This document shows positions 3,113 through 63,897 of a stretch of 64,000 nucleotides of DNA, one piece after another (position 1 is the stretch's first letter; every line of letters begins with the position of its first letter). This DNA comes from a virus. The translations under genes and the position numbers were made by a program. The stretch lies in the IMG/VR virus record IMGVR_UViG_3300045988_140747; one strand, written 5' to 3'. The notes under the pieces were generated by a model. It was not told the DNA's origin, searched no databases, and was given only the letters and a program-made list of their open reading frames with translations.

Positions 3113-3201
3113 ATTGGAGCACGACCTACTGAAGATAATCAAGAAGTTAATCAAGGCCTTGTATAGATGCTCTAATAAATTGCGGTATATCGCAATTTTA
3201 T

Positions 3202-3229
3202 TTGACTAGGTTGGTGGTTGTGCTACGAT
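3202..3229 (+). promoter_or_regulatory. conserved phage promoter cassette, copy 3
   Basis: TTGACT 3202-3207, 16-nt spacer, TGc + TACGAT 3224-3229. Confidence 0.65.
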
Positions 3230-3278
3230 ATAGTCGTAGAAAAACTACACATTATCGGAAAACAGGAGAATTTAACTC

Positions 3279-3560
3279 ATGAAAACTTCTGAAGTTCGCA
3301 GCTCTCTCCTCAATCTCGCTGAAAAACTTGACAGCCAGTGGGCATACGCCAGCCAGCTTGCAAGGAGACAGGAGATCGAAGGGCTTACTCTGTATGATGA
3401 TGAAGGGAAGCCATTCCCTAATGCTGCGCAGATCTCGTATCGCGGGATGACATCCGCCTTCGAATCGCTTGGAGGAGAGTGGCACAGGAAGATCAATGGT
3501 AGCCATCGGCTTTGCCTGTATGGCATGTACGTTGAAACCTATCCAGATGATGAGGTGTGA
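3279..3560 (+). CDS. hypothetical protein (93 aa)
   Basis: CAGGAG RBS. First gene after promoter copy 3. Confidence 0.7.
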   Translation: MKTSEVRSSLLNLAEKLDSQWAYASQLARRQEIEGLTLYDDEGKPFPNAAQISYRGMTSAFESLGGEWHRKINGSHRLCLYGMYVETYPDDEV

Positions 3561-3562
3561 AT

Positions 3563-3901
3563 ATGTTTGATCTGCGAGAACACAAGGGTCTCATTCGTCG
3601 TTTGGTTTCCGAGGCGAACAAAAATGATGCCATTTGGCACTGGTCGCTAAAAGCTCTCAGCAAGACCAAGGCTAGCATCTTCTGGAGTTATCTGGAGTAC
3701 GGAGGCCAGAAGCCGTGTTTCACAATTGAGCTTGACGAGACTGAAGACGACTGCATGATCCGCGCGAAGGACGAGCACGGAGACACCCTCAACTGCGAGA
3801 TGGTTGAGTGCAAAGACCTGCCTCACCTGAATACGCCGATCGAAGAGGCGATCAAGATGATGGCCTACACGATCATCAATACGGCTCACAGTTGCTACTG
3901 A
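3563..3901 (+). CDS. hypothetical protein (112 aa)
   Basis: ATG 3563 lies 7 nt after GAGG (3552-3555). A GTG at 3557 is an alternative start. Confidence 0.7.
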   Translation: MFDLREHKGLIRRLVSEANKNDAIWHWSLKALSKTKASIFWSYLEYGGQKPCFTIELDETEDDCMIRAKDEHGDTLNCEMVECKDLPHLNTPIEEAIKMMAYTIINTAHSCY

Positions 3902-3915
3902 TTGGAGGCTTTGAA

Positions 3916-4512
3916 ATGGATAGCAAGATATTCGATCTGAATGCGGCATTTATTGTGTCCACTGAGTCCAGAAAGTTTCTCGTAGTCATAGAAAACTGCA
4001 ATATTGAATCAGATATTCTGTTTCAGCTCTGCCAACGCATCGTAACTCTCGAAGATGAAGGCTGTGTTGTCACCGGTGTTGTCAGAATCCTTTCTGACGG
4101 AACCAGACCCCGGGTTGCTTTTCGCGGAACAAAAGAGTACAAATCTGCAAAGCGGAACGCGCACAAGTCCTCTGATGCTCTTACTGGTCGGTATGCCAAG
4201 CTCGCTGCCGACCTGAAAGCTGCCTATGAGTACGGCAAGGCACACATGGGTACTGACGATGGCGGGACCTGCAACTTCGATTCTCCGACGCTGTACCTTC
4301 CAAGATGGAACAAGGAACAGGTCAAGGCTGCTGTTAAAGCCGCCGGGCTCAACAGCTTTGAATGGAAACCGTTTGGCAGGCAGAGGGCGTTCTTGGTTGT
4401 GTCTGTCCCATGCGCTGGTCAGGGCTATACAAGAACGAATGCGGCCGAGGCGATGAGTAAGCGACTTGGAGAACTTGGTTACGACTCTGGGATGTACTAC
4501 CAGATGGACTGA
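3916..4512 (+). CDS. hypothetical protein (198 aa)
   Basis: ATG 3916 lies 7 nt after TGGAGG. The upstream part of ORF 3808..4512 overlaps the previous gene out of context. Confidence 0.7.
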   Translation: MDSKIFDLNAAFIVSTESRKFLVVIENCNIESDILFQLCQRIVTLEDEGCVVTGVVRILSDGTRPRVAFRGTKEYKSAKRNAHKSSDALTGRYAKLAADLKAAYEYGKAHMGTDDGGTCNFDSPTLYLPRWNKEQVKAAVKAAGLNSFEWKPFGRQRAFLVVSVPCAGQGYTRTNAAEAMSKRLGELGYDSGMYYQMD

Positions 4513-4518
4513 CTCCGC

Positions 4519-4541
4519 AAAAGGCTCTACAGCCTTTTTAA
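4519..4541 (+). terminator. rho-independent terminator
   Basis: AAGGCT (4521-4526) / AGCCTT (4531-4536) stem, CTAC loop, then TTTTA. Confidence 0.55.
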
Positions 4542-4645
4542 TGATTCGTTAGATACCATCACTCATTGGAAAAATGTTAAATGATTTCACGAATTGCTGA
4601 AAACCTCAACAATCGAAAAATGGACTGAAACACGTCGTTTTCCTA

Positions 4646-6231: not shown

Positions 6232-6582
6232 ATGAGCTATACCCCGCCAGAAAAAATGACCATCGAACAGCTCAAAGCAGAGGTCGATGCTTCCTTTGAG
6301 GAGTGGGAACGCATCAAAGAGAATGGGTGTCAAGATCCATCATGGCCTGATGGAGTCAACATGAACCTTGTGCGGAACCACATTATTTTTTGGTATCAGT
6401 ATCTTCAGGAGAGGATCTCTGCTTCGAATGAACAGCTTTCTCTCTTTGACGTGAACAACGATCCAATCGACAAACGCCCTGTTCCACCCGTTGTTCCAAA
6501 TGCCTACATGGCTCCAAATGGAAAGCATTCTCACCGCCTTGACAACGACCCTATGTGGCCTAACATCGTCCACGATATCTAA
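6232..6582 (+). CDS. hypothetical protein (116 aa)
   Basis: ATG 6232 follows GAAGGGAGGTGG. The first 118 codons of ORF 5878..6582 are an out-of-frame overlap of the previous gene. Confidence 0.7.
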   Translation: MSYTPPEKMTIEQLKAEVDASFEEWERIKENGCQDPSWPDGVNMNLVRNHIIFWYQYLQERISASNEQLSLFDVNNDPIDKRPVPPVVPNAYMAPNGKHSHRLDNDPMWPNIVHDI

Positions 6583-6599
6583 CACAAAGGAGAAGTACT

Positions 6600-7223
6600 A
6601 TGAAGAAAATCAAAGTTAAACTGACATTCAAGGAACCTATTCTCGGCACTTGGCCGGCTAATCCCAATGTTGCGCGAGAGTTTATCGCATCGAAGTCCCC
6701 TGATGCTACTACCGTTGAAGATGAAATCGCTGCCCTTGGAGCCGATGCGGTGGCAGACAAAGGGATGACTGTTTTCCCAAGAGATCCCGATGGACGCCCG
6801 ATTTTTTACGATTACCAAATTAAGGGGTTCTTTAAGGACTCCTGTGGTATGCTCTCCAGAATCGGCGGCAAGACCGAAACTGGAAAGAAAAAGGCCGTGA
6901 ATGAGTCTGGAAGGATTACGGCTTACAAGAAGACTATTGACGGGTTGATCTTCGTTGAACCACGCATGATCCCCATTGTGTTTGATGGGGAAATTGGTGA
7001 TTGTCAGCGCCCTCTCCGCGCACAGACAGCGCAGGGTGAGCGCGTCAGCCTCACCAACAGTGAAGAAATCCCTGCAGGAGCTACCTGCGAATTCTCCATC
7101 GTTCTCCTTGATGAAAGCCACGAAAAGGCTGTTCTGGAATGGATGGATTATGGCTCTTTACGTGGTATCGGCCAGTGGCGAAATTCAGGCAAGGGACGTT
7201 TCGACTACGAAATTGTAAAATGA
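6600..7223 (+). CDS. RAMP-like (Cas7/Csm3-style RRM fold) protein, 207 aa
   Basis: AAGGAG RBS. C-terminal glycine-rich loop GIGQWRNSGKGRF (7164-7202) fits the RAMP signature GhGxxxxxGxG. FPRDPDGRPIFYDYQIKGFFKDSCG (6774-6848) resembles the Csm3/Cmr4 motif (d.G.P.IPgSslKG.lR). Confidence 0.45.
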   Translation: MKKIKVKLTFKEPILGTWPANPNVAREFIASKSPDATTVEDEIAALGADAVADKGMTVFPRDPDGRPIFYDYQIKGFFKDSCGMLSRIGGKTETGKKKAVNESGRITAYKKTIDGLIFVEPRMIPIVFDGEIGDCQRPLRAQTAQGERVSLTNSEEIPAGATCEFSIVLLDESHEKAVLEWMDYGSLRGIGQWRNSGKGRFDYEIVK

Positions 7224-7453
7224 ATGCTATGGCACGGCTAAGCCTCGACTCGCAACGACAAGCAAAGGCAAAGCTCGGAGAAGCCCCGAAACGCAGTGGC
7301 CATGATGTGAAGCAAACCGCACAGCAACGGCTTCGATATGAAATGGGAAGCACTGCTATGGAGAGGAAAAGCAAAAAGACGATGCGCATAGCCAAGTCGT
7401 TGTATAGCAAAGATAAGAAATGCGAGGAATGCTCACCGACGCAACTGCAGTGA
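7220..7453 (+). CDS. small basic Lys/Arg/Gln-rich protein (77 aa), tentative
   Basis: ATG 7220 overlaps the stop of 6600..7223 (ATGA coupling). Reads MNAMARLSLDSQRQAKAKLGEAPKRSG... It lies in a purine-rich repeat-bearing region, so coding status is uncertain. Confidence 0.35.
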   Translation: MNAMARLSLDSQRQAKAKLGEAPKRSGHDVKQTAQQRLRYEMGSTAMERKSKKTMRIAKSLYSKDKKCEECSPTQLQ

Positions 7454-7699
7454 ACAGCTGAGAATATCCAGGAAGTGCGGCGCAAAGGCAAGGAATGGCA
7501 AAGAGATGCAGCGGCATTGCCTAGAGAGGTAAGGAACGGCTATGGCATTGCGTAGAACTGACCAGCAAAGAGAAGAACAGCATTGAAAAGGCATGGCTTG
7601 GTGGGTCGTCGCAAGGGCACAGCTCGGAGAGGAAGTGCCTCGCGCAGCAAAAGCAGAGTATAGAGATGAACTGCAAAGGCAAAATGGAGGTTGAACAAC
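7454..7699 (+). other. purine-rich non-coding stretch with degenerate repeats
   Basis: No ORF over 33 codons. GCAAAGGCAA occurs at 7262, 7482 and 7673. AGCTCGGAGA occurs at 7272 and 7621. GGAAGTGC occurs at 7471 and 7631. Confidence 0.4.
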
Positions 7700-8404
7700 A
7701 TGGCAGACATTAAAGACAAAATTTCAAAGCTTTTGGCTCTTGCCGAAAGCCCAAACGAGAACGAAGCCAAGATGGCACTGCTCAAAGCCAGAGAGCTTAT
7801 GGCTCAGTACAAGCTCACACCCGAAGAAATCACCCGGGAGAAAAGTGAGGTCGTGAAACGTGAAGTTCTCGGCATCAAATGCACAAAGATGACCAATGAC
7901 TGGATCCCTACATTGGCAAGTGTTATTGCTTCCCACTACTGCTGCAAGGCATATCTATACCGGGAGCAGTATTCCAAAACCAGTCAGATCGGCTTGATCG
8001 GACTTGAAGATGACTTTGACATCTGCAAAAAGATTATCCTCTATGCGGTTGAGTGCGTTCTGTCTGGAACCCGGCGGATTGTGAAGAACCCTTATGAACC
8101 CGCCGGGAGACACCGTAAGAATTGCAACGCATACGGTTGGGGGTTTGCCAAGGGACTTCGCGAAGCGTATGAAAAACAGGCTGAACAGCACCAAGAGTGG
8201 GGACTGGTTATGAGCGTTCCTTCCGCCGTCACTGATGAAATCAAAAGTCTCTGTGGAAAGGCAAAGCCCAAGCCTTATGGAACTGGGCGCTGTGATCGTG
8301 GCAGTTCCGATTTTGCCCAGTCTGGTTACGAAGCAGGAAAGCAGTTTGATCCGAGCCGCAGAATCGGAAATTCCGAACAGCCCGCATCTACTCTCACAGC
8401 TTGA
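7700..8404 (+). CDS. DUF2786-type protein (234 aa)
   Basis: ATG 7700 lies 9 nt after GGAGG (7686-7690). N-terminus DKISKLLALAESPNENEAKMALLKARELMAQY matches the DUF2786 signature helix pair. Confidence 0.7.
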   Translation: MADIKDKISKLLALAESPNENEAKMALLKARELMAQYKLTPEEITREKSEVVKREVLGIKCTKMTNDWIPTLASVIASHYCCKAYLYREQYSKTSQIGLIGLEDDFDICKKIILYAVECVLSGTRRIVKNPYEPAGRHRKNCNAYGWGFAKGLREAYEKQAEQHQEWGLVMSVPSAVTDEIKSLCGKAKPKPYGTGRCDRGSSDFAQSGYEAGKQFDPSRRIGNSEQPASTLTA

Positions 8405-8420: not shown

Positions 8421-8924
8421 ATGAATGGTACGTTCTATCGTGGTGAGATTTACTACGTCAATCCCGGAAACGGCGAAGTTGGAAGTGAAATCCGAAGTGG
8501 TCGTCCCGGCGTTATCGTCAGCAACGATCTAAACAACAGGCATTCAGCCTTCGTTGAGATTGTATATTTGACAACGAAGGATAAAAAGCCTCTGCCAACG
8601 CATGTTCATGTTGAATCCTCTGGAGTTTCGGCCACCGCGCTGTGCGAACAGGTCGTAACTGTTGATAAAAGCCGCCTGAGCACATACATTGGCACACTTA
8701 CGAGCGCCGAGATGAAAGATGTCGAAAAGAGTATTGTTATCAGCCTTGGACTTGACGATTATGTTGCTGCCTCCAAAGAGAGCGCATTGGACCCAACCAG
8801 ACAGTGTTGCTCTCATTCTGAAAATTTGAAGCTTCGATTCCACAGCGATTCTGAGTATATCGCGGCTTGCGCACAGCGAGATGCCTACAAGGAACTGTGT
8901 ATGAAGCTTATCGATCGAAAGTGA
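8421..8924 (+). CDS. MazF/PemK-family endoribonuclease-like toxin with C-terminal extension (167 aa)
   Basis: GEIYYVNPGNGEVGSEIRSGRPGVIVSND...LTTKDKKPLPTHVHV...CEQVVTVDKSRL follows the PemK/MazF pattern (GdIy.v.f....GsE..g.RPavVvs......vvvpltt......p.hv.l.....s.v.~eqirtid~.RL). AAAGGAG RBS. Confidence 0.65.
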   Translation: MNGTFYRGEIYYVNPGNGEVGSEIRSGRPGVIVSNDLNNRHSAFVEIVYLTTKDKKPLPTHVHVESSGVSATALCEQVVTVDKSRLSTYIGTLTSAEMKDVEKSIVISLGLDDYVAASKESALDPTRQCCSHSENLKLRFHSDSEYIAACAQRDAYKELCMKLIDRK

Positions 8925-24229: not shown

Positions 24230-25456
24230 ATGGAAAAAGCAGTTGAAGTCTGCGGAAAGTACACATCCGCAAAGATTTTTACCCATGACTACGATGAGAG
24301 ATCGTTTCAGCAGATCAAGGAGTTCTGTGATAACCCTGCTGCCGCCGGGAACAAAGTTCGCATCATGCCAGATGTACATGCCGGCGCAGGCTGCGTCATT
24401 GGATTCACGGCTGAGTATACCGACAAGATCGTACCCCATGTGATAGGGGTCGATATTGGATGTGGTATGTTAGCCGTAGATCTCGGAATGCGAGACATTG
24501 ATCTCGATGAACTTGATCGGCTTATTCGTGAGCGTATTCCTGCAGGATTCAACGTTCATGACGAGCCAACCATGTCTACCGGAATCCTTGATGGATTGTG
24601 CTGTAGAGACAAGCTTCATAACATTGATCGGATTGAAAGAAGCGTCGGCACGCTTGGAGGAGGAAATCACTTCATTGAACTTGATGTCGATGATGAAGGC
24701 CGAAAGTATCTCGTTATTCATACCGGAAGCCGGAATCTCGGAAAGCAAGTGGCAGACTACTACCAGAATCTTGCCATTTCAAACCTGAAGGGAAAGAACA
24801 AGACTGCTGAAGAGAAAAAAGAGCTTATCCGAAAACTTTCTGCTGAAGGCCGACAGAAGGATATCGCAGAAGCTTTAAAGGCCATCAAGCATGATTCTTC
24901 CGAAGAAATACCCGACCATCTGTGCTATCTTGAGGGCCAAGATATGAAGGAATATCTCGGCGATATGGGGCTGTGCCAATACGTTGCAAGCTTAAACCGC
25001 GGGAAAATACTCCTATCCATCCTCGGAGGACTCAGCCTGCTCAACATCTATCAAGACAGTTCCGTGTTTGAAACTATCCATAACTATATCGATAGCCATG
25101 GAATCATCAGAAAAGGGGCTGTTTCCGCCAAGGCAGGGGAGAAGCTCTTGATCCCGCTGAACATGCGAGACGGAAGTTTGATCTGCATCGGTAAAGGAAA
25201 CCCGGACTGGAACTTTTCTGCTCCGCACGGTGCCGGAAGGCTGTATAGCAGGAAGAAAGCCCGTGAGACATTTAGCGTCGAAGAATATCGGAAGCAGATG
25301 AATGGCATTTTCACCACTTCTGCCGATGCATCTACCCTTGATGAGTGCCCTATGGCCTATAAACCTGCAGATGAGATCATTGAAGCCATCGGCTCGACTG
25401 CGGAGATTGTGAAGCGCATTCGACCGATCTACAATTTCAAAGCAGGAGGCGAATGA
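24230..25456 (+). CDS. rtcB: RNA 3'-phosphate/5'-OH ligase RtcB (408 aa)
   Basis: Hallmark RtcB motifs: MPDVHAGAGCVIGF, GGGNHFIEL, SAPHGAGR. Length matches bacterial RtcB. AAGGAG RBS. Confidence 0.9.
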   Translation: MEKAVEVCGKYTSAKIFTHDYDERSFQQIKEFCDNPAAAGNKVRIMPDVHAGAGCVIGFTAEYTDKIVPHVIGVDIGCGMLAVDLGMRDIDLDELDRLIRERIPAGFNVHDEPTMSTGILDGLCCRDKLHNIDRIERSVGTLGGGNHFIELDVDDEGRKYLVIHTGSRNLGKQVADYYQNLAISNLKGKNKTAEEKKELIRKLSAEGRQKDIAEALKAIKHDSSEEIPDHLCYLEGQDMKEYLGDMGLCQYVASLNRGKILLSILGGLSLLNIYQDSSVFETIHNYIDSHGIIRKGAVSAKAGEKLLIPLNMRDGSLICIGKGNPDWNFSAPHGAGRLYSRKKARETFSVEEYRKQMNGIFTTSADASTLDECPMAYKPADEIIEAIGSTAEIVKRIRPIYNFKAGGE

Positions 25457-26661: not shown

Positions 26662-28377
26662 TTATTCATACTTGAAGCGAACCGTGATTGCGTTTTTAAA
26701 CACCACTGAAGTGACTTTTCCGTTTACGATGTCTATTTCCGCTATGATGGACGTGAAAAACGACTTCTGAATCGACTTGTCCACAGTTTGCGAAAACTTT
26801 TTGTAGTCGATCTTGGAATCGCCTATGAGATTCTCCACCATCACGAAATAGCTTGCTCGGCTTATGAAGTCCTCGCTAGAAATCATTGTTTCTTGATCTT
26901 CGGAACGAATTTCTCCGAGCCTTTTCTCTATATCCTGAAGTTCGGATATGATTTTATTCCGCTCGGAAGCGTACTCTCTCTCGGACATTCCGCTGTCACT
27001 GTACAGATACAATGACTTCAACCTTGATAAAGCTGATTCTTTGCTACGATGCTTACTCTCTAGTAAGCTTTTTTCACTTGAAGTGTTCGACAGGCCGCTT
27101 TCTGCTATAGGAGGATTGTACTCTATGCCGGTCTTACCTGATATGATGGCTTGCTTCAATGCTTCAAGCCCCGGACGCTCGATACCTGTTATTCCGGACG
27201 ACGAAAGATTTTTCAGCAGAATATTCTCAAGGCTGGACAATGTCGTTTGATCGGTAACGGTATCTTTTGCTCTGATGATGTTTGCAATGAAGTTTACTAT
27301 GACCCCTCCGAACGTTGAATCCGACACCATTTTGTTTGAGCAGATGGCGGTATTTTCACGCCTTTTGCGGCAAGTATAGATTGACGGACTCCAACCGTCA
27401 GCATGTGGGCTGTCCAAACTCGCGGTCATGCTAGTTCCGCAGATTCCACACCTCATAATGCCTGCGAATGTGTGAATGTTCTTCCTGAGGTATGTTTTGT
27501 TTTTGGAAACTCCGCCGAGGCAATTGTCCGATAAGGCTTTTGAAATTCTGTCGAAATCTGTTTTCGACACTATTGGCTGATGGTGATTTTCGATTGTTAC
27601 CCACTCATCTTCCTTGTTTTTCTTGTTGCCCTTCCTGTCGTTGTGGACATTATACTGATAGGCACCGATATAAAATGGACTTGTAAGGATTTTGTGTACT
27701 CCGGGAACGTTCCATTCGTTGCCAGCTCGTGTTTTTATGCCAAGATTGTTTAAATGCCTACAAACATAGATTAGCGACCGGTACTGATCGTATAAAAGAT
27801 AAATTTTTTTCACGATGTCCGCTTCTTTGGCATTCACTGAGAACTGCTTCGTCTTTTTGTCGTAATCGTAGCCATATGGAATACGCCCTCCGTTCCATTG
27901 GCCGTTATTCGCTCTGGAAAGCATGACTGCTGTGACGCGCTCTGAAGTCATTTGCCGCTCAAGTTCCGCGAAAACCAGAATGATTTTCAGCATTGCCTCA
28001 CCAACGGCGTTGCTCGTGTCGAACTGTTCATTTTTGCTAACGAATGCAATTCCGAGTTTTTTCAGTTCCGAGTACATCTCTGCGAAATCGAGAAGATTTC
28101 TGCTGATCCGGTCGATTTTCCAAACAAGAAGGTGAGAAAACTCACCGGTGCGAAGACGATCCATCATACGCTGGTAATCCGGGCGGTCCGTGTTCTTTGC
28201 CGAGTAGCCTGCATCCTCAAAAATTACATAATCCGATGTCCCGAGGATCATCTCAGAGTACGCGATCAGCTCCCTGCGTTGAACCTGAAGAGAGTCTTTA
28301 TCAACTTGGTATCTCGTAGAAACACGAATGTAGATTGCCACTTTTTTTGAATTTAGTTTTTCTGATATTGCTGTCAT
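26662..28377 (-). CDS. large serine recombinase (integrase), 571 aa
   Basis: N-terminal resolvase-type catalytic domain (VAIYIRVSTRYQ...SLQVQRREL...VWKIDRISRN), then a recombinase domain and a Cys-rich zinc-ribbon region (CGICG...CRKRR). GGAGGCA RBS. Confidence 0.9.
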   Translation of the reverse strand: MTAISEKLNSKKVAIYIRVSTRYQVDKDSLQVQRRELIAYSEMILGTSDYVIFEDAGYSAKNTDRPDYQRMMDRLRTGEFSHLLVWKIDRISRNLLDFAEMYSELKKLGIAFVSKNEQFDTSNAVGEAMLKIILVFAELERQMTSERVTAVMLSRANNGQWNGGRIPYGYDYDKKTKQFSVNAKEADIVKKIYLLYDQYRSLIYVCRHLNNLGIKTRAGNEWNVPGVHKILTSPFYIGAYQYNVHNDRKGNKKNKEDEWVTIENHHQPIVSKTDFDRISKALSDNCLGGVSKNKTYLRKNIHTFAGIMRCGICGTSMTASLDSPHADGWSPSIYTCRKRRENTAICSNKMVSDSTFGGVIVNFIANIIRAKDTVTDQTTLSSLENILLKNLSSSGITGIERPGLEALKQAIISGKTGIEYNPPIAESGLSNTSSEKSLLESKHRSKESALSRLKSLYLYSDSGMSEREYASERNKIISELQDIEKRLGEIRSEDQETMISSEDFISRASYFVMVENLIGDSKIDYKKFSQTVDKSIQKSFFTSIIAEIDIVNGKVTSVVFKNAITVRFKYE

Positions 28378-28451: not shown

Positions 28452-28495
28452 CATATACCGTAACCGTAACCTTAACCGTAACCATATACCGTAAG
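28452..28495. repeat. cluster of CCGTAA direct repeats upstream of the integrase gene
   Basis: CCGTAA starts at 28458, 28464, 28476 and 28489. CATATACCGTAA is duplicated at 28452 and 28483. Confidence 0.7.
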
Positions 28496-28507
28496 CTATA
28501 TATTTAT

Positions 28508-46647: not shown

Positions 46648-46943
46648 ATGAAAAAATTGTCGGCCTTTTCAAGTGCCGTAACTGTGGGTCAATCTTTAAT
46701 GAAAAAGTGGAAGTGACGCAGTCTGTAAGTTGGGCAATCAAAGACATGTCCAAGGAAGTTGAATATACCACGACCGCGGCATTCCACGGAACTTCTCTCC
46801 CGGGGCGCTTTATCATTCACCGGTGCAAAAAAGGATGGTTCTGCATTTGCGACCTTGTTGGATGGAAGATTGGAGAGGAGGCGCAGGACGGTTGTGAATT
46901 TGGATGGAATATTGGAGAGGAGACGCAGGACGGTGGTGAATGA
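46644..46943 (+). CDS. zinc-ribbon protein ending in a 14-aa tandem repeat (99 aa)
   Basis: ATGA overlap. CRNCGS...HRCKKGWFCIC. C-terminus is WKIGEEAQDGCEFG / WNIGEETQDGGE. Confidence 0.6.
   Translation: MNEKIVGLFKCRNCGSIFNEKVEVTQSVSWAIKDMSKEVEYTTTAAFHGTSLPGRFIIHRCKKGWFCICDLVGWKIGEEAQDGCEFGWNIGEETQDGGE
46859..46942 (+). repeat. 42-nt tandem duplication (2 copies)
   Basis: TGGATGGAAGATTGGAGAGGAGGCGCAGGACGGTTGTGAATT (46859-46900) and TGGATGGAATATTGGAGAGGAGACGCAGGACGGTGGTGAATG (46901-46942) differ at 4 positions. Confidence 0.9.
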
Positions 46944-48928: not shown

Positions 48929-49014
48929 GGGCGTGTAGCTCAGAAGGTAGAGCACGCGTGAGTCCAAAAGGTCTCCGCCAGAAGAAGTCGTCGGTTCGAT
49001 TCCGACCACGCCAA
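48929..49014 (+). ncRNA. tRNA-like element with no usable anticodon loop
   Basis: Canonical D arm GCTC-AGAAGGTA-GAGC and T arm GTCGG-TTCGATT-CCGAC. A 6-bp acceptor (G1.A72 mismatch) and no CCA. The 35 nt between the D and T arms fold into an 8-bp hairpin capped by AAAA instead of a 5-bp stem with a 7-nt loop. Confidence 0.5.
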
Positions 49015-49150
49015 GACCGAAAGTATTGAAAGATCATGTGTGGTGCGCAACATACGCGGTCTGGAGACACATAGTAGGCAACAAGGCTCGTGTTAGGTAC
49101 AAGCACGGGTCAAATGCAAGAGAGCTGAAGACGTTCAGCTCTCTTTCTTT
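49015..49150 (+). ncRNA. structured spacer ending in a second terminator
   Basis: AGACCG 49012-17 pairs with CGGTCT 49056-61. Hairpin CTCGTG/CACGGG. Terminator AAGAGAGCTGAA-GACG-TTCAGCTCTCTT (49118-49145) followed by TCTTT, spanning 49118-49150. Confidence 0.4.
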
Positions 49151-49152
49151 AT

Positions 49153-49242
49153 GCAGTCGTACTCAAGTCTGGTTTAAGAGGGCTGTTTTGAAAACAGCTA
49201 GGTGGGTAACACGCGCGGGTTCGAATCCTGCCGGCTGCGCCA
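49153..49242 (+). tRNA. tRNA-Ser (anticodon TGA), class II, CCA encoded
   Basis: Acceptor GCAGTCG/CGGCTGC, 3-bp D stem, anticodon arm GCTGT-TTTGAAA-ACAGC, 16-nt variable arm, T arm GCGGG-TTCGAAT-CCTGC, G73. Confidence 0.85.
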
Positions 49243-49271
49243 TGAAAATAAAAATGAAGGAAGGCCATTTT

Positions 49272-49946
49272 ATGAAAGTTGAAAGACCCAGTTATCAAAT
49301 CCTTACTGAGATCTCAAAAGACGGCATCGAAGAGCTGCAGCGAATTGAACGCGTAGCACGAGTCTGCTATAAGAGCGAGGATAAGATCGTCCCGGATGGC
49401 TCATCGGCGAAGAAGCTGGTGAGCTTTCTTATTAAGCAGGAGCATGAGGCCATGCTGGAGCACTCCCAGCTGTCTGTGCTGTTCACCTGTGACAGGGCCA
49501 TTGCAAATGAACTGGTACGTCACCGCATTGCATCCTTCGCGCAGGAGAGCACCCGCTACTGCAACTATGCAGGGGAGAAATTCGGATGGGAGACTACGGT
49601 TATCAAACCGTACTACATTCCCGGCGATGGGTCTGACGCATATAAAGCTTGGTTCGATGCCTGCTGGGAAGCAGAGCAAAGCTATCTGAAGCTCATTCGG
49701 AGTGGTCTTCGTCCTGAACAAGCACGCTGCGTATTGCCGTTGTGCCTGAAGACAGAGATCGTGGTGACTGCCAACTACCGTGAGTGGCGTAACATTTTCA
49801 AATTGCGTACACATATCGCCGCTCACCCTCAGATGCGCCAGCTTATGTGCCCGCTTCTTCTCGAGCTGCAGAAGAAGATCCCGGTTGTGTTTGATGATAT
49901 CTACACCTACTGGCCGAATGATGACCAGACCGGTAAGAAAGCTTAA
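49272..49946 (+). CDS. thyX: flavin-dependent thymidylate synthase ThyX (224 aa)
   Basis: ThyX signature RHRIASFAQESTRY (RHRxxSxxxxSxR). ATG 49272 lies 8 nt after AGGAAGG. Earlier in-frame ATGs overlap the tRNA. Confidence 0.85.
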   Translation: MKVERPSYQILTEISKDGIEELQRIERVARVCYKSEDKIVPDGSSAKKLVSFLIKQEHEAMLEHSQLSVLFTCDRAIANELVRHRIASFAQESTRYCNYAGEKFGWETTVIKPYYIPGDGSDAYKAWFDACWEAEQSYLKLIRSGLRPEQARCVLPLCLKTEIVVTANYREWRNIFKLRTHIAAHPQMRQLMCPLLLELQKKIPVVFDDIYTYWPNDDQTGKKA

Positions 49947-56282: not shown

Positions 56283-57691
56283 ATGAGTATGCCACAGATC
56301 CTGAAGCCGCAGGAAGGACCTCAGACACGGTTCATGTCTACCCCCGCGAGCATTTGTATCTATGGCGGCTAGGAGCAGCCGGCGGAGGGAAAAGCTTTGG
56401 ATTGCTCATGTCTGCCCTTCGGTACAAGAACGTGCCCGGGTTTGGCTGCACCATATTCCGAAAGAACTTCAACCAGATATTTGCACAGGGCGGTCTGTGG
56501 GATGAATCCATGCAGATCTACCAAGACGTCAAGGGAGCTTGTCCCAAGTTCGCTCGAGGGCAATGGTTGTTCTGCAATGACAAAGGTGAGGTTTTATCAA
56601 AGGTCACGTTTGCTCATATTGAGAAGGATGAGGACGTCCATAAATGGCAAGGCTCTCAGATCTGCGAATTGGGATTTGACGAGCTAACTCATTTTACCGA
56701 GAAAACGTTCTTCTATATGCTATCCCGTAACCGATCTGCCTGTGGTGTTGAGCCATTTGTCAGGGCTACATGCAACCCTGATGCGAATTCATGGGTGGCA
56801 AAGTTCATTGAGTGGTGGATCGATCAGGATACTGGATACCCAATCCCTGAACGGAGTGGGAAGATTCGATGGTTTATCCGCCGGGATGAAGTGCTCTACT
56901 GGGCTAATACCCGGCAAGAGCTCTGGAAAAGATTCAATCTCACTACAGAAGAGGAGAAAAGTGAGCCAAGGTCTGTCACGTTCATAATGTCTAAGTTGAG
57001 CGACAACAAGGAACTTATGAAGGTGAACCCGGGCTACCTTGCAAACCTAAAGGCGCTGTCTCAGATCGAGAGAGAGCGCCTTCTTTATGGAAACTGGAAG
57101 ATCAAGGCCGCTGCTGGTCTCTACTTCAAGAGATCACAGCTTGGAGAGATTCTCAATAGTGTCCCTGCGGATGTCATCCAGTGGGTAAGATGCTGGGACT
57201 TGGCTGCTACGGAAAAGGACGACAAGGGAGACCCGGCATATACTGCTGGCGTCCTTATGGGAAAGCGGAAGAATGGACGATATGTCATTGCCAACGTTGT
57301 CAACAAGCAGATGTCCGCATCTGATGTCCGAAAGACCATCAAGCTCACGGCACAGTCTGATAGAGCTGCCTATAAGCGAGTCCGAGTTCGATTGCCACAG
57401 GATCCCGGACAGGCCGGTAAGGAACAGGCGGAGTCCTACATAAAGTTCTTGGCCGGCTTTGATGTTACGACTGTGGCAGAAAGCGGAACCAAAGAGGCAA
57501 GAGCGGAGCCAATGGCTGCACAATGGCAGGCTGGAAACTTCGACATTGTATACGGCGAGTGGAATGAAGAGTACCTGCTTCAGCTTGAAAACTTCCCAGA
57601 TGGAAAGTTCAAGGATATGGTCGATGCTTCCGCAAATGCTTTTGCAGAGATCGAATCCAGATGCGCATTCAACCTCAGCAACCTGATTTGA
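56283..57691 (+). CDS. terL: terminase large subunit, reading frame broken 5' of the Walker A motif
   Basis: Frame A (56283-56372) reads MSMPQILKPQEGPQTRFMSTPASICIYGG then TAG. The frame of ORF 56354..57691 continues (L)GAAGGGKSFGLL... plus the full ATPase and nuclease domains. Removing 5 nt (TAGGA, 56370-56374) restores ...IYGGAAGGGKS. Confidence 0.8.
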
Positions 57692-57717
57692 TTACCATAC
57701 CGGAAGGAGATATAAGC

Positions 57718-60700
57718 GTGGATAAGATGACACAAGAGGATCGCATCAAGCACTATGCGCATCTGATTCAGCGTCAGACTGGCAAGGCTGTGCGACCGTA
57801 CCGTGCTGACGGATACGTCAACATGGTTAACCGGTATGGCACATCGAAAGATTCGTCCGAGCAGTACAACTTCGTACCGGATGCGCCGGTTGCTGACGAT
57901 GTGCTTGAAATGCACTATGAAAACAACGGCCTGTTTTCCAAAATCATCGATATGCCGGCAGAGGAAGCCATCAAGCACGGCTTTACCATCGAAGACGTAG
58001 AGGACGGAAAGCTGGCTGACTTCTACAGCGAAGCTCTCGACGAACTCAACTGGGAAGAGAACGCCATGACCGCCGTTAAGTGGGCAAGACTGTTCGGCGG
58101 CTCCATTGCCATTATGCTTGTGAACGATGGTCGTGGGCTCGAGGAACCTCTCGATTGGAAGAACATTCAATCCATTGACGATATCCGAGTGTACGACAGA
58201 TCGCTCATTAGCCCTGACTACAGTAGCGTGTTCAACTACGATCCGCAGGATCCATTCCGAGTTCGCGGCAGTCGGCTTGGTATGCCCGAATACTATGATG
58301 TCTATAGCAAGTATGGATCATTCCGAGTACACGACAGCAGATGCCTTGTTTTCCAAAACGGCGTCCTGCCTGAAAATGCAACTAACTCCATCTACCAGTT
58401 TTGGGGAATCCCGGAGTACATCAGGCTGAACAAGGCCATCCGGGATGCGGACATTGCACACCGCAGCGCACCCAAGTTGCTGGAACGGTCTGTGCAGCCC
58501 ATCTATAAGATGAAGGATCTCGCGGCTGAGTTGGCTACAGAACAGGGCGAAGACCGCATTCTCAAACGTCTGCAGGTTATCGACACTGCACGAGGAATCC
58601 TCAACAGCCTTGTCATCGATGCCGATGGCGAAGACTATGACTTCAAGACGTTCCAGTACAACGGTATCACTGACGTTATCAGTGCATCCTGCAATATGCT
58701 CGCTGCCCTGTCCAATATTCCACAGATCATTCTGTTTGGGCAGACCATCAGCGGAATGAGCAGCACTGATGACACCAGCATGGAGAACTACTACAACTAC
58801 GTTGAGCGCATTCAGAAAAGGATGCTGCGGAGTAATCTCCGATATCTACTGTCTGTTGTTTTTCAAGCCGGCCTTGCAACCGGAGAGGTTGATGAAGTCC
58901 CAAAGCTGAAGGTTCAGTTCAATCCTCTGTGGTCTGTCAGCGATTCCGACCAAGCAACTCTGGATCAGCAGAAGGCCCAGACCGAGCAGATCAAGGCGCA
59001 GACTGCCCAGATCTATGTCGGTATGGAAGCCATTGATCCCAGCGAGGTTCGTTCCAAGCTTGCAGATAGCGATGACTTTGATGTCGAGAATATGCTTGAT
59101 GAGTATACTGAAGAGGAACTCGAAGCTGGAATGCCAAGCAATGATGAGAGCCAAGAGCAAACGCCTGATGATGGACAGCCTGCTACTCCTGATTCTCAAC
59201 CTACTGGAAATGATGAAAAAGCCGGACCTGGTCAGCTCCTGAACGAAAAGACTCTCTCTGCTGTTGGAAACAATGCAAAAGATCCTGCCACCATGGAGAC
59301 TAAGGTTAGCTCCGATCCTCATGAAAACAAGGAAGGCACTGAAGGTGATGCCCCTGCATCCGCCCCTGCTGCGACGAAAAAGCCTTCCGACATGGACCCT
59401 GAAGAAAAGGCCAAAGCTGCACAATCGCGCCAAAACAAGGCAAAAGACCGGGAGGACTCACTTCGTACCGATGACAACAATTCTCACTCCGAAGATCAAA
59501 AAGGCTCGGTGGGCGTTATTGTGGTCAATGGGGGCAGAGTCCTGAATGGTACTCGGCACAACGATTTTGGCTACGGCCTTGTCTGTGGCCCCGGCGGTCA
59601 CATTGAAGAAGGTGAAACTCCGGAACAGGCTGCATTCCGAGAGACCAAAGAAGAATTCGGTATTACGCCCAAAAGCCTTATGTGCCTTGGACAAGGGCCT
59701 AAAGAAAAAGATACCGGCCTGAAGCCGTACCTGTTCCTGTGCACCGAATACTACGGCACTCCGAACTGCGAAGATCTCGAGATGACCGGCGCCAAGTTCA
59801 GTACCATTGAGGAATTGAACGAAAAGGCCGAATCCTTGTTCGGCCCGTTCGCAGACGGCCTGAACATCCTGATGGACTGCCTTGAAACCGGCATCTTCTA
59901 TACAGACCCAGCGGAAGGCGTAACTGGCGAGAAACTGAATTCTCATCTGGAAAAGGCTATGAATGCCGATGGAGGTCAAGGATCTGGCAATTTTGGACAC
60001 GAAGGAAGGCCAGGAAAAGTAGGAGGAAGCGCCGAGTCGCACAACTTTGGAGGGCTCAAAAACAGCGAGCTTTCATCTAAGATGAATGGCGTGTTCGATG
60101 ATGCAAAGATAGGAACTCGCTTTTCCGTAAAGATGAACGGCGTTGCCGGAAAAGATGATTATGAAATCTATAAAGTTTCAGATGGATTCTACGTTCGGAG
60201 CAAAAAAGGCGGAAACGATATTGTCAAATCAGTTGACAAGCTCGTCGAGAATTGCGGTGTATACGTCACAAATCTGACCTCTGACAAGGTCATGTATAAG
60301 GAAGCCAACATTGAAGTTGGTGAACCCGAAACAGAAGAAGCACAAAGTTTTACTAGAGCATACGAATCTTGCAGAAAGGAAAGAGAGCGACTTGCATCTG
60401 GGAATTATAAAATCACTGAAGTTGATGATGCTACCGCAAAAAAGTATGCTGACACTTTGAACAAAGCAAGCAAGGCAAAAATCGCAAAACTTGCTATTGA
60501 TGACCCACAGTTCAAGGCTGTTGTTGATAACATTTCTGCGTATACACAGGGAGAATATGTATATCAGCGAAAAGCGACTGAAAAATTCATCAGCAACGGA
60601 TATGACCCATCTAACGATGCAATCCTCGGAGATCGACTTACCGATTCTTTGTATTTATGCAAAGACATGTACAAGGGACAAAATCTTTCCGTTTCCAGTG

Positions 60701-63700
60701 CAAGTGTAACGGAAGGCATGGCGAACTTGACAAAGGCTGTGAATTGCTCCGATCCGTTTGACGGAGAGCTGTACCGAGTTGCTCAGGACAGAAGCCTGAT
60801 GAAAACTGCAGACTCTGGAAACCAGGGAGTATACACTCCGCCAAAACCCGGAGAAACAATATCCATAGTTGCTCCTACTTCGTTCTCAAAGGACAAAGCG
60901 GCTATTGATAAGATTGCCAAAGATAAGTCCGGTGATATCATCTATTACACTGTTCAACCGGGTGCTCATGCCGTAGATGTATCAAAGCTGTCACCGTATA
61001 AGCAAGCTGAACTCCTTACCTGCGGAGAATATGAGGTTGTCAGTGTTGATTCCAAGCCTCAGAGAGTTGTTATGACTCAGATCGATCGTTTCACAAGTGA
61101 AACAATCGATTCGCTGAAGGCCAACAGAGGGGCAACAGTTGACGACGGTTTTGTTAAATTTCCAATCCTTGAAACTCATGTGACTCTTCGCCAGAAAGAA
61201 CCTATTCACATGGATTCTTGCGATGATAGCATCCACAGATACAGACCCGACGATTTTTCCGAACGGATGGTCTATGATGACGAGATTGATCTCGATGGTG
61301 GCCCAGGGTCTGGGAACTATGGGCACGAGGGCGTTCCGGGGCAAGTGGGCGGAAGCGCCCCTAGCACAAGCGGTCCGATTTCCAAAAGTAGCTTTCAGAA
61401 GGGCTCTGGTCACTTTGAAGTAACTGGTGACGTGAAAGATATGTATCTCACAAAGCCGGCAAGAACCAGAATTGAAGGGGCTATTAAAACGGTGAAAACC
61501 GCTAATGACCTCAAGAAATATCTTGAAAATCAAGGAATCAAGCTTGAAACGTCTTATGAACCACTCAAGAAAGCGATGGATAGAGAGATCCCGTCCATCA
61601 AGGAGCAGGCTGATTATGTGATTGCCGCTATTGAGCAGTACAAGGATCTCGGTGGGCTTAAAGCGCTTAAAGCGGTTCACATCTATGACCATGATATTGA
61701 TGCACAGGCGCAGTACAGCTATCGCGCAAAAGGGGAAGGTGATGTTCCAGACGAGGGACATTTGTATATCAGCTACATGGCTAATGGAGAGCAAATTATG
61801 CATGAGTTTGCTCACGCCTATGCTGACTCCACAAAGCCTGATGGAATGGATGTTGTCGAATGGTCAGCGAAGCTCAACCAAGAAGCAGGCCTTTCGAAAA
61901 ACGTAAAATCATACTTCGGCGCGGACAGCGATGCTAAAGAAGCTGAGCGTTTTGCCAATGCGATTGGGTACGCAATTGCGGATGGAGATGGACCGGATGG
62001 CCGACTTGCATTTGCTGCAAATGTTGCGAATATCGTAAGAAATTCCAATGGATCGTCCGCAGGAATGTCCGGCGGAAACCTTGCATTTAGAAGCATGATT
62101 CCGAAAGACAGCTACTTCAACTCTCCATCCTACAAGAAGGCTGTTGAAGCCTACCGCGGAGCCATCAGAAAGCATGACGATGCATGGAAGAAATATAGCG
62201 ACCTCAAGGAAGATCTCAAAGCAGAGTCCGCTCCGAAGCCTGAATCTGAATGGGATGATAACGACATCTTCGAAGATCTCATTGGCCATCGTCCCATGAC
62301 CTACACAGAAAAAGGCAAGAAGATCAAGTCTGAGATGGACAAAGCCTTCAAGGATTCACAGGAATATGACCATGAGCAGACCGAGACTGGCGACAAGCTT
62401 CGCGAGATCAAGAAAAAAGAGCATGACAAGCAGGTGAAGGGCATCCATTTCCAACCGCCTGCTGATGCCTCCTCCGATGATTATGAGGGCTTTACCACTA
62501 AGACCACCGGAACGTCCGCCTATGATGACTACATCAACGGAGAAAGGAACGGAGGCCGAATTGCAGAGATGTCCCCGGCGGAATATCTTCAAAGATGCGC
62601 CTATCAGGTCTTTGAAGATGCTACCATTGAGTCCACTCTGGCTGCTATCGATGAGTCCAACGTTAAGAAGTATGCCGATATGATGAAGAATGGCACAAAG
62701 TTTGACATGCCGTATCTCAATTTCATGTCTGGTCAGCAGGAAGGACGGCATCGAGCCGCTGCTGCCATGCAAGCTGGTATCGATAAGATCCCTGTGCTTG
62801 TGGTCGGAGAAAGGTTTGCCAAGTATGACGGAGGAAAAGGCTCTGGCAACTGGGGCCATGAAGGCCGAAAAGGGAAGCTCGGTGGATCGGCCCCCGGCGG
62901 AGGCGTGCACAACCGGATTTCCGAAGAGGGCGGATCCTACACCTCATTCTCAAAGAAGCAGAAGAAACTTGCCACAACGCACTTTGCCGGCAAGGGGGAA
63001 TTTCACAATCTCCCGGACAAGACTAAGATTGTTGCCGATCTTGTGTTTGGACCGTACTCTATGGTCTATAACGCCAAGCATGGCATGTTCATCGGCGAAG
63101 ACGGTGCCGAAATGAACCCGGATGATGTGACAGACGCTTGCGACAAAGACACTCCTGTTCGAGTGTTCATTCCGAATGAGGCGAGCACGAACTACAACAA
63201 GCTCAAGCAGTCCTTTGATGTTTCCCCGTCCAGAATGGCTGAAGCAAAAGCCTATTCACAGCCAAAGCAAGCCGACAAAGACCTCCGAAAGAAAACCGGA
63301 GAGGTGTGGAAAACGCTTACTGATGGTCAGAAAAAGTCACTTTATGATTATACCGGCGGCTTTTTTATGGACATCAACCACTCCCTGAGAAGTGGTCATG
63401 GAACTGTGCAGAACCAGTCCAAGGCCTCTGACATCACGACCGCCATAGCTAAGAGCAAAACTCAAGAGGATATGTGGCTGTATCGAGGAGTTGGCTTGGA
63501 GGCTGTTCCTAAGATGTTTGGTATTGACTGGGGAAAAATACAGAAGAATGACATTGGTTCTATTGTTGGAATGTCCGGCTCTGACGACGGCTTTATGTCG
63601 TGCGGTACAACTGCTGGCACTGGATATGGAGACGTAACCGATGTCAACATGAAGATTTTCGTTCCGAAGGGGTCTGAGGCTCTATACGCAGAGCCGTTCT

Positions 63701-63897
63701 CAAAGTATGGAAGCAACCCGGATGCCAAGAACTGGAACGGCGAAAGCGATCAGACCTATTTTTCCTCCGAAATGGAGACTATCTTGCAAAGAGGGTCTCA
63801 TTTCCAATGCACAAAAGCCTACTACGATGAGGACAAAAAGAAATACAGTATCGAAGTGGCTGTCACCGGACAAGAATACAAGGAGCTCAATTGGTGA
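57718..63897 (+). CDS. portal protein fused to a polyvalent cargo: Nudix, MuF-like/ART-fold, zincin metallopeptidase, ParB/Srx-like and C-terminal ADP-ribosyltransferase domains (2,059 aa)
   Basis: GTG 57718 lies 8 nt after AAGGAG (ATG 57727 is an alternative start). DUF1073-type portal region at about 57.7-59.1 kb. Nudix box GPGGHIEEGETPEQAAFRETKEEFGI (59587-59664). R / TSFS / QxE triad at 60775, 60877 and 61003. HEFAH at 61801-61815. EGRHRAAAA at 62740-62766. Terminal ART domain with YTGGFFMDINHSLR, LYRG (63484), FMSCGT (63598) and ExE (63769-63777). Confidence 0.8.
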   Translation: MDKMTQEDRIKHYAHLIQRQTGKAVRPYRADGYVNMVNRYGTSKDSSEQYNFVPDAPVADDVLEMHYENNGLFSKIIDMPAEEAIKHGFTIEDVEDGKLADFYSEALDELNWEENAMTAVKWARLFGGSIAIMLVNDGRGLEEPLDWKNIQSIDDIRVYDRSLISPDYSSVFNYDPQDPFRVRGSRLGMPEYYDVYSKYGSFRVHDSRCLVFQNGVLPENATNSIYQFWGIPEYIRLNKAIRDADIAHRSAPKLLERSVQPIYKMKDLAAELATEQGEDRILKRLQVIDTARGILNSLVIDADGEDYDFKTFQYNGITDVISASCNMLAALSNIPQIILFGQTISGMSSTDDTSMENYYNYVERIQKRMLRSNLRYLLSVVFQAGLATGEVDEVPKLKVQFNPLWSVSDSDQATLDQQKAQTEQIKAQTAQIYVGMEAIDPSEVRSKLADSDDFDVENMLDEYTEEELEAGMPSNDESQEQTPDDGQPATPDSQPTGNDEKAGPGQLLNEKTLSAVGNNAKDPATMETKVSSDPHENKEGTEGDAPASAPAATKKPSDMDPEEKAKAAQSRQNKAKDREDSLRTDDNNSHSEDQKGSVGVIVVNGGRVLNGTRHNDFGYGLVCGPGGHIEEGETPEQAAFRETKEEFGITPKSLMCLGQGPKEKDTGLKPYLFLCTEYYGTPNCEDLEMTGAKFSTIEELNEKAESLFGPFADGLNILMDCLETGIFYTDPAEGVTGEKLNSHLEKAMNADGGQGSGNFGHEGRPGKVGGSAESHNFGGLKNSELSSKMNGVFDDAKIGTRFSVKMNGVAGKDDYEIYKVSDGFYVRSKKGGNDIVKSVDKLVENCGVYVTNLTSDKVMYKEANIEVGEPETEEAQSFTRAYESCRKERERLASGNYKITEVDDATAKKYADTLNKASKAKIAKLAIDDPQFKAVVDNISAYTQGEYVYQRKATEKFISNGYDPSNDAILGDRLTDSLYLCKDMYKGQNLSVSSASVTEGMANLTKAVNCSDPFDGELYRVAQDRSLMKTADSGNQGVYTPPKPGETISIVAPTSFSKDKAAIDKIAKDKSGDIIYYTVQPGAHAVDVSKLSPYKQAELLTCGEYEVVSVDSKPQRVVMTQIDRFTSETIDSLKANRGATVDDGFVKFPILETHVTLRQKEPIHMDSCDDSIHRYRPDDFSERMVYDDEIDLDGGPGSGNYGHEGVPGQVGGSAPSTSGPISKSSFQKGSGHFEVTGDVKDMYLTKPARTRIEGAIKTVKTANDLKKYLENQGIKLETSYEPLKKAMDREIPSIKEQADYVIAAIEQYKDLGGLKALKAVHIYDHDIDAQAQYSYRAKGEGDVPDEGHLYISYMANGEQIMHEFAHAYADSTKPDGMDVVEWSAKLNQEAGLSKNVKSYFGADSDAKEAERFANAIGYAIADGDGPDGRLAFAANVANIVRNSNGSSAGMSGGNLAFRSMIPKDSYFNSPSYKKAVEAYRGAIRKHDDAWKKYSDLKEDLKAESAPKPESEWDDNDIFEDLIGHRPMTYTEKGKKIKSEMDKAFKDSQEYDHEQTETGDKLREIKKKEHDKQVKGIHFQPPADASSDDYEGFTTKTTGTSAYDDYINGERNGGRIAEMSPAEYLQRCAYQVFEDATIESTLAAIDESNVKKYADMMKNGTKFDMPYLNFMSGQQEGRHRAAAAMQAGIDKIPVLVVGERFAKYDGGKGSGNWGHEGRKGKLGGSAPGGGVHNRISEEGGSYTSFSKKQKKLATTHFAGKGEFHNLPDKTKIVADLVFGPYSMVYNAKHGMFIGEDGAEMNPDDVTDACDKDTPVRVFIPNEASTNYNKLKQSFDVSPSRMAEAKAYSQPKQADKDLRKKTGEVWKTLTDGQKKSLYDYTGGFFMDINHSLRSGHGTVQNQSKASDITTAIAKSKTQEDMWLYRGVGLEAVPKMFGIDWGKIQKNDIGSIVGMSGSDDGFMSCGTTAGTGYGDVTDVNMKIFVPKGSEALYAEPFSKYGSNPDAKNWNGESDQTYFSSEMETILQRGSHFQCTKAYYDEDKKKYSIEVAVTGQEYKELNW

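Follow-up and report, generated by a model that had tools for sequence, protein, structure and literature searches.

A probable VIPR locus in a phage of gut Clostridia: a stand-alone RAMP-fold protein and its modular pentanucleotide array

The DNA analyzed here (the window) is a stretch of 64,000 nucleotides from the IMG/VR virus record IMGVR_UViG_3300045988_140747, and is part of a temperate phage of ~100 kb. The phage genes in the window include those for a serine integrase, RecT, a DnaC-like loader, RtcB, ThyX, tRNAs, the large terminase and the portal. The locus of interest is located at 6600–7685 and consists of a gene for a 207-residue protein (to be referred to as vipr, see below) and a non-coding repeat array directly downstream of it. 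The features of this region are as follows.

6539..6566, + strand: candidate sigma-70-like promoter, TTGACA-16-TAACAT (consensus scan, 10/12 matches)
6589..6592, + strand: Shine-Dalgarno sequence GGAG, 7 nt 5′ of the vipr ATG (from the sequence)
6600..7223, + strand: vipr gene, ATG start, encoding a 207-aa single-RRM RAMP (Cas7-like)
6774–6848, + strand: motif block FPRDPDGRPIFYDYQIKGFFKDSCG in vipr, residues 59–83
7164–7202, + strand: G-loop GIGQWRNSGKGRF in the C-terminal region of vipr, residues 189–201
7220..7453, + strand: 77-aa ORF that overlaps the vipr stop (ATGA) and was predicted by gene finders on sister contigs (L001)
7226..7685, + strand: vrRNA-type array, ~460 nt, non-coding, ~87–90 consecutive 5/6-nt units G-C-A-N-N
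7226, 7262, 7293, 7324, 7365, 7396, 7441, 7482, 7508, 7539, 7585, 7611, 7647, 7673, + strand: starts of the ~14 array modules, each opened by a GCAANG hexamer
7482..7551, + strand: array segment shared with arrays of the clade (blastn)
7700–8404, + strand: DUF2786+DUF7168 protein, the 3′ neighbor of vipr and the array
8421–8924, + strand: PemK/MazF-type toxin domain protein (E=3e-23), directly after the DUF2786+DUF7168 protein

The candidate promoter sits ~35 nt 5′ of the vipr start and is weak, as the count of such sites in the region is not above that in shuffled sequences. The DUF2786/DUF7168 and PemK pair is restricted to the ~100-kb phage lineage, and elsewhere is unlinked to vipr. No obvious antitoxin was called for the toxin gene at 8421–8924.

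Several features outside this region were also noted. The RtcB RNA ligase gene (24230–25456, + strand, Pfam E=1e-60) lies upstream of the integrase, in the accessory region, and the phage enzyme may repair tRNA or other RNA cut by host defense nucleases. Between 41334 and 50062 on the + strand, five or six tRNA genes (Pro, Met, Gly, Ser, Gln) are clustered, with ORFs among them; the sixth tRNA, at 48929–49014, is called by Rfam only, and ThyX (49026–49946) is positioned inside the cluster. The serine integrase gene (26662–28377, minus strand) is adjoined by ~6 tandem copies of the hexamer ACCGTA (28457–28500), which might be part of an attachment or regulatory region. There is a direct tandem duplication of 42 nt, 93% identical, at 46858–46941 in a coding-looking region. 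An ORF of 2,078 residues (57661–63897, + strand) contains a portal domain (residues 84–442), a NUDIX domain (615–720) and an ADP-ribosyltransferase exoenzyme domain (1878–2067), and looks like a portal protein with ejected or effector-like enzymatic extensions.

The vipr product has an LGT motif in β1, a P-x3-DYQIKGFFK motif, a thumb hairpin (residues 133–157, RPLRAxTxQGERVxLxxSE) and the G-loop. An earlier note on this DNA, made from the letters alone, had described the product as a solitary RAMP-like (Cas7/Csm3-style) protein with a C-terminal glycine-rich loop signature and a second RAMP-like block, and the reading frame and both motifs are found at exactly the positions given there. Searches with the single sequence found no match in Pfam or PHROGs, and those in NCBIfam and the PDB gave only sub-threshold RAMP matches (a 'Cas7' PDB chain and Csm4), both at the C-terminal motif. 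With a profile of the family, the PDB search finds type VII CRISPR Cas7 (E=3.1e-5) and L. lactis Csm4 (E=2.3e-3), at the G-rich loop. Among 57 members of the family, 17 match TIGR01903 and nine match the PADLOC model Cas7_IIId; the recurrent weak matches of the family are all RAMPs.

The structure predicted from the alignment with AlphaFold2 (pLDDT 91.8, pTM 0.86) has a single domain with the topology β1-α1-β2-β3-α2-[G-loop]-β4 and a long hairpin at residues 133–157; there is no second RRM. A Foldseek search through the PDB with this model finds 149 matches at E<=1e-3 (best E=1.5e-7, TM 0.5–0.57), and the best 50 of the 149 are all members of the Cas7 family (type VII Cas7, Csm3, Cmr4, Cas7-11, III-D, Csf2). 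The structural assignment made in the earlier note is therefore borne out, including the location of the glycine-rich signature in a loop, which the model places between α2 and β4. The predicted structure makes the 207-residue product a minimal RAMP, composed of the RRM core, the G-loop and the thumb. This resemblance is known to automated annotation, since a viral structure library already lists a 70%-identical protein under the name 'Cas system-associated RAMP superfamily protein'.

The vipr family is large, with at least 7,928 homologues after clustering at 90%, and clustering at 50% identity gives 1,749 or more clusters. The identical 207-residue protein is present on 118 contigs, and its label in nr is 'MAG TPA: hypothetical protein [Caudoviricetes sp.]'; A0A8S5R426 is a relative in UniProt. 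Contigs of IMG/VR contain homologues, as do prophage-like regions in MAGs of Clostridia; no plasmid homologues of the family were found, and its members are in phages and prophages only. In a diverse alignment of 57 family sequences (42–60% identity), residues G76, K79, R137, S154 and G199 do not vary, and conservation reaches at least 90% at G189, Q192, W193, R194, N195 and F201. The most conserved blocks are G-[LI]-G-Q-W-R-N-x-G-x-G-R-F, DYQIKGFFK and RPLRAxTxQGERVALAxSE. As both motifs, the G-rich loop among them, are conserved across this alignment, they are neither due to chance nor private to one phage.

Variations on this architecture are found among the homologues. P0135 (458 residues) and P0158 (432 residues) each consist of two Vipr/Cas7-like domains in a natural tandem fusion, and the LGT, [IW][KR]GF.K, RP[IL] and GQWRNSG motifs are retained in both domains. 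These fusions recall the multi-Cas7 gRAMP fusions, and suggest head-to-tail contacts between protomers, as in Cas7 backbones. C-terminal extensions are present in P0124, P0125, P0132 and P0139. The extension in P0124 is a Big_2 Ig-like domain (Pfam E=1.6e-15), and those in the other three are disordered tails with AT-hook-like PKKRGRKK stretches at the end. Such K/R-rich tails would suit DNA binding, and some of the disordered tails may be due to read-through into the stop-poor array. An 86-kb contig of an Oscillospiraceae MAG (JAGCAN010000001.1) carries two copies of the vipr locus (L117/L118), ~48 kb apart; their flanks are identical in ORF maps, indicating a duplicated prophage region or an assembly repeat.

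The gene stands alone, as had been claimed. The entire 64 kb is free of CRISPR-like arrays, and the window ORFs that were scanned include no cas gene. Neither a CRISPR array nor other cas genes (Cas5, large and small subunits, Cas6) were found in the window or in 160 related loci. Clustering of the ORFs in these 160 loci (80 from IMG/VR and 80 from GTDB) finds no conserved neighbor or protein partner of vipr. In the GTDB and IMG/VR loci, vipr is located in the early region of temperate phages of 30–60 kb from gut Clostridia, flanked by repressor/antirepressor genes on one side and by SSB, RecT, exonuclease and RusA genes on the other.

The interval from the vipr stop to the next gene (7224–7699) is 476 nt long and T-poor (14% T). 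Its period-3 power is 0.10, compared to 5.2, a strong signal, in the vipr gene. Instead, the tract has a Fourier peak at 5.12 nt (power 13.6), and this periodic signal is confined to 7151–7700 within the window. The corresponding tracts of the family show a sharp peak at 5.14–5.16 nt and no codon period. The earlier note had recognized this interval as repeat-rich, and rightly so; what it had overlooked is the order of the repeats, an array of the guide type with a pentanucleotide period.

The words that make up this period are strongly enriched. GCAAAG and related words occur 203 times in 53 tracts, as compared to 13.5 expected (15-fold). On the gene strand, the mean GCANNG density of 80 diverse loci increases from ~0.6 to ~4 per 100 nt over the 400 nt that follow the stop, and on the opposite strand it is at background. 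The distances between motifs are almost only 5/6, 10/11, 15/16, 20/21, 25/26, 31, 36 ... 62 and 67 nt. A period of 5.149 ± 0.031 nt is detected in 56 of 78 loci, compared to one of 77 controls. This periodicity was used as the detector for arrays, the T-poorness alone being only mild across the family.

The array is located directly downstream of vipr in 57 of 80 loci and directly upstream, ending at the vipr start codon, in ~12 of 80, in both cases on the strand of the gene. No array was detected in the other 11 of 80, partly because some contigs are cut. The neighborhood survey called for earlier thus finds a phage-borne family in which a co-oriented array adjoins the gene in ~69 of 80 diverse loci (~86%), with no other common neighbor. 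Periodic tracts are rare elsewhere within ±8 kb of vipr. Such tracts away from a detected vipr are present in L104 (at −7.0 kb and +1.8 kb) and L090 (at −2.6 kb); they may be orphans, or part of a second vipr locus that escaped detection.

A structured non-coding RNA was rejected as an assignment for the tract. There is no match to Rfam at gathering or permissive thresholds and no ribozyme, and the predicted folding of the RNA is weaker than that of its shuffles (z=+1.4). No hairpin tails were found in the array. The 77-residue ORF at its start was considered as a basic partner protein and was likewise rejected, as the tract has no codon periodicity and the ORF lacks conservation in other loci. 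It is judged to be spurious, because the T-poor composition gives few stop codons.

The units of the array were delimited by segmentation with dynamic programming. Their consensus is G(0.86)-C(0.53)-A(0.46)-N-N, with an information content of 1.2, 0.35, 0.19, 0.06 and 0.03 bits at positions 1 to 5; the scaffold positions (G, usually C, and A) are conserved, and two to three positions per unit are free. In the window, 87 consecutive units begin at 7226, of which 82 have the phased initial G and 13 are 6 nt long, the latter recurring every 26–46 nt. Family-wide, the consensus of the 6-nt unit is G-C-A-A-N-G. Next to this hexamer comes a well-conserved GCA-N-N pentamer (G 0.99, C 0.93, A 0.72), and three to five looser G-N-N-N-N units complete the module. 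The commonest modules are 31 nt long (407 cases), followed by those of 26 nt (299) and 36 nt (263). A conserved handle of ~9 nt (GCAANG-GCA) is therefore placed every ~31 nt between G-phased variable segments of ~22 nt. The non-integer period of 5.15 nt arises because the 26-, 31- and 36-nt modules each hold one hexamer.

The array diverges far faster than the vipr gene. Where the genes are 90–99% identical at the DNA level, the arrays are only 37–41% identical, compared to 28% for unrelated arrays, and the per-position gradient of mismatches in the arrays is modest (0.20 to 0.34). The sole part of the window array with detectable DNA similarity (76–86%) to arrays of the clade is the segment at 7482..7551, which may be one or more shared guide modules. 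A search for natural targets in ~1.9 Mb of related phage DNA, with two, three or four variable positions per unit, 0–3 skipped bases and 5–10 units, found none above shuffled controls and only trivial array-to-array matches. The power of this search would be low if the guides are single ~31-nt modules.

A recent preprint describes a system named VIPR, for Viral Interference Programmable Repeat (bioRxiv 10.64898/2026.04.26.720920, 25 June 2026). As described there, Vipr is a phage-encoded 'ancestral RAMP' of ~20 kDa in which an RRM core is combined with a G-loop and a thumb. The vipr gene either stands alone or is accompanied by a single accessory gene, vap, and in the intergenic DNA on its flanks are vrRNAs that consist of at least 4 pentanucleotide repeats in tandem (10.64898/2026.04.26.720920). 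In these repeats a conserved GGY alternates with a hypervariable NN. The canonical unit is YNNGG, and the alternative classes are given as 'NNNGG, YNNNG, NNNNG'. The variable dinucleotides are described as reading double-stranded DNA with a one-base skip, and the complex as repressing competing phages, satellites and prophages. VIPR is reported mostly from viral and proviral genomes, in a non-CRISPR context. Seven types are distinguished, and the array architectures vary ('staggered arrays', single vrRNA). Experiments are reported on type II (phage SUSP1 and a P. fulva prophage), in which an invariable structured 3′ tail follows each repeat tract (10.64898/2026.04.26.720920). A literature search for solitary phage Cas7-like proteins found no earlier description.

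The SUSP1 locus (Escherichia phage SUSP1, KT454805, 27.5–29.5 kb, minus strand) consists of a gap, a 195-aa gene, a 146-aa gene and a second gap. The Fourier scan recovers the published SUSP1 vrRNAs, with YNNGG units, a period of ~4.95–5.0 nt and a hairpin tail after each. An hhalign comparison of the family profile (A1) with the single SUSP1 Vipr gives E=2.1e-4 over 173 columns, and that with a profile of the SUSP1 clade gives E=2.9e-5 and a probability of 74% over 181 collinear columns, a match of moderate strength. The parts in common in the latter alignment are the β1 region, the 'PYIPG/YDYQIKG' RAMP motif and the G-x-G-x-WR..GRF-x-x-E tail. The RAMP-like character of the FPRDPDGRPIFYDYQIKGFFKDSCG block is confirmed here, as its DYQIKGFFK aligns with the 'PYIPGxNI' motif of the SUSP1 Vipr clade. 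For the SUSP1 clade, 529 proteins (90%-identity clusters) were found, compared to the 1,749 or more 50%-identity clusters of the family described here. When the array units are placed in the register of the preprint, 51% are YNNNG, 25% NNNNG, 17% YNNGG and 7% NNNGG.

We conclude that 6600–7685 is very probably a VIPR locus, from a clade in phages of gut Clostridia and with a modular array of the YNNNG type. This conclusion is based on the fold, the full-length homology to a validated Vipr and the adjacent, co-oriented, hypervariable pentanucleotide array, together with the residence in phages and the absence of CRISPR components. The earlier note had listed three possible functions, of which the third, participation in a new RNA-guided function, is the one in line with the evidence here. 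The locus is not new in kind, however, now that the preprint has described VIPR (10.64898/2026.04.26.720920).

The locus shares with SUSP1 type II a phage-encoded, single-RRM RAMP of ~20 kDa with a thumb, a G-loop and the C-terminal G-x-G-x-WR..GRF. Both are without cas genes or a CRISPR array, and both have a non-coding tandem pentanucleotide array directly up- or downstream of the gene, in which the scaffold is fixed and the free positions are hypervariable. There are also differences. The unit here is G-C-A-N-N, purine-rich and T-poor, whereas that of SUSP1 is a T/G-rich YNNGG. The array here is one continuous tract of ~460 nt with ~31-nt modules and the GCAANG-GCA handle, while SUSP1 is described as having separate vrRNAs of ~100 nt, each with 9–16 repeats and a hairpin or pseudoknot tail. 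Moreover, the hosts of the clade are gut Clostridia, and no conserved vap gene is located beside vipr in the 160 loci. The absence of tails excludes the type II architecture but not VIPR, because the preprint allows other architectures, and the differences from SUSP1 may correspond to its 'staggered arrays' or 'related consensus'.

A more remote relative is found in Hydrogenobaculum phage 1 (KP282676, L166), a 19-kb thermophile phage. The gene for its 256-residue homologue (27% identity, locus 3128–4618) precedes two intergenic gaps that are C-poor and G/T-rich and have a weak ~5-nt periodicity; this may be a VIPR locus in an Aquificae phage.

The backbone Cas7 proteins of class 1 systems (type VII Cas7, Csm3, Cmr4, Csf2) have in common with this Vipr the fold, the G-rich loop between α2 and β4, the thumb hairpin and the P-x-x-x-x-x-x-I-K-G-x-x-[KR] motif. 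In comparison to them, the locus here has no CRISPR array, no Cas5, Cas6, Cas10 or Cas11 partners and no second domain, and the RNA periodicity is 5 nt with a periodic 6, rather than the 6 nt of Cas7 systems. Judging from the alignment, Vipr here also appears to be without the conserved Asp at the catalytic position of Csm3.

Other readings of the locus are possible in principle. The earlier note had proposed an anti-CRISPR decoy. This would be a solitary Cas7 mimic that soaks up host crRNA or poisons host type I/III effector complexes. The Cas7-like fold and the location of vipr in accessory or early phage regions agree with this proposal, and Clostridia hosts commonly have class 1 CRISPR systems. 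However, a decoy needs no array, whereas vipr is tied to its own co-oriented pentameric array, and sequences resembling host repeats are absent. The family is also unlike typical Acr families in being huge (1,749 clusters) and strongly conserved, with invariant residues. Anti-CRISPRs are small, evolve fast, have a narrow distribution and often an aca HTH neighbor; this combination is not seen here, and no adjacent conserved HTH gene was found beside vipr. Relatives have, moreover, been reported to be RNA-guided DNA binders (10.64898/2026.04.26.720920). The decoy finds no support here and is extremely improbable. A DNA-level element appears just as implausible. The array would then be an origin- or centromere-like set of iterons on double-stranded DNA, bound by the protein, with 5.15 bp equal to half a helical turn. 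Its period is non-integer and coherent, some homologues have the AT-hook-like basic tails, and vipr is near replication and recombination genes in many phages. The half-turn reading was dropped, however, as the ~31-nt modules with one 6-nt unit each fully explain the period, the content of the arrays is hypervariable, unlike that of iterons, and the array keeps the orientation of the gene even when its position flips. The replication module of the window is, moreover, 25 kb away.

It is somewhat less improbable, though still not to be expected, that the module acts at the level of RNA only, with the protein binding or processing the adjacent repeat RNA (as a TRAP- or CsrB-like sponge, or in autoregulation) and no guiding to foreign DNA. 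Triplets spaced by five nt resemble TRAP sites, and the trp leader RNA recognized by TRAP has 11 G/UAG triplets with 2–3-nt spacers. The analogy is that of one subunit per short triplet every 5–6 nt on unstructured RNA; the fold of TRAP is unrelated, its regulatory target is fixed and it has no hypervariable positions. The orientation of the array fits co-transcription, the RNA is predicted to be unstructured, and the target search produced no hits, all of which agree with an RNA-level role. On the other hand, the free positions are hypervariable while the scaffold is kept, which suggests that the array carries information content and is not a mere binding platform. In addition, the homologous system is described as reading DNA with its variable positions (10.64898/2026.04.26.720920). 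The VIPR reading is therefore preferred.

By analogy with the type II experiments in the preprint (10.64898/2026.04.26.720920), the array of this VIPR locus would be transcribed together with vipr and give rise to short vrRNAs, with one Vipr protomer bound per repeat. The thumb and the G-loop would grip the conserved trinucleotide and leave the variable bases exposed, and these would then read a gapped sequence in double-stranded DNA. A filament of vrRNA-loaded Vipr on its target would repress the transcription of competing phages, satellites and resident prophages. The output in this clade is likely to be repression rather than cleavage, because vipr stands alone and has no conserved vap partner.

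A bolder reading, which we consider doubtful but worth stating, is that the gut-Clostridia clade represents a distinct VIPR type with a miniature-CRISPR-like array, possibly with a decoding rule unlike the published 1-nt skip. If this is true, the array could stand structurally midway between pentanucleotide vrRNAs and repeat-spacer arrays.

With VIPR, a new form of RNA-based reading of double-stranded DNA has been reported, and it is proposed as the viral ancestor of the CRISPR RAMPs (10.64898/2026.04.26.720920); it is also attractive as a ~20 kDa tool without a PAM requirement. The locus described here extends VIPR by a very large clade, from phages of the human and animal gut, with a stand-alone gene and a long, purine-rich array of ~31-nt modules. 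If the modules are individual guides, one temperate phage would carry ~14 of them, for a wide-ranging repression of rival gut phages, and a compact, multiplexed array format would be on offer.
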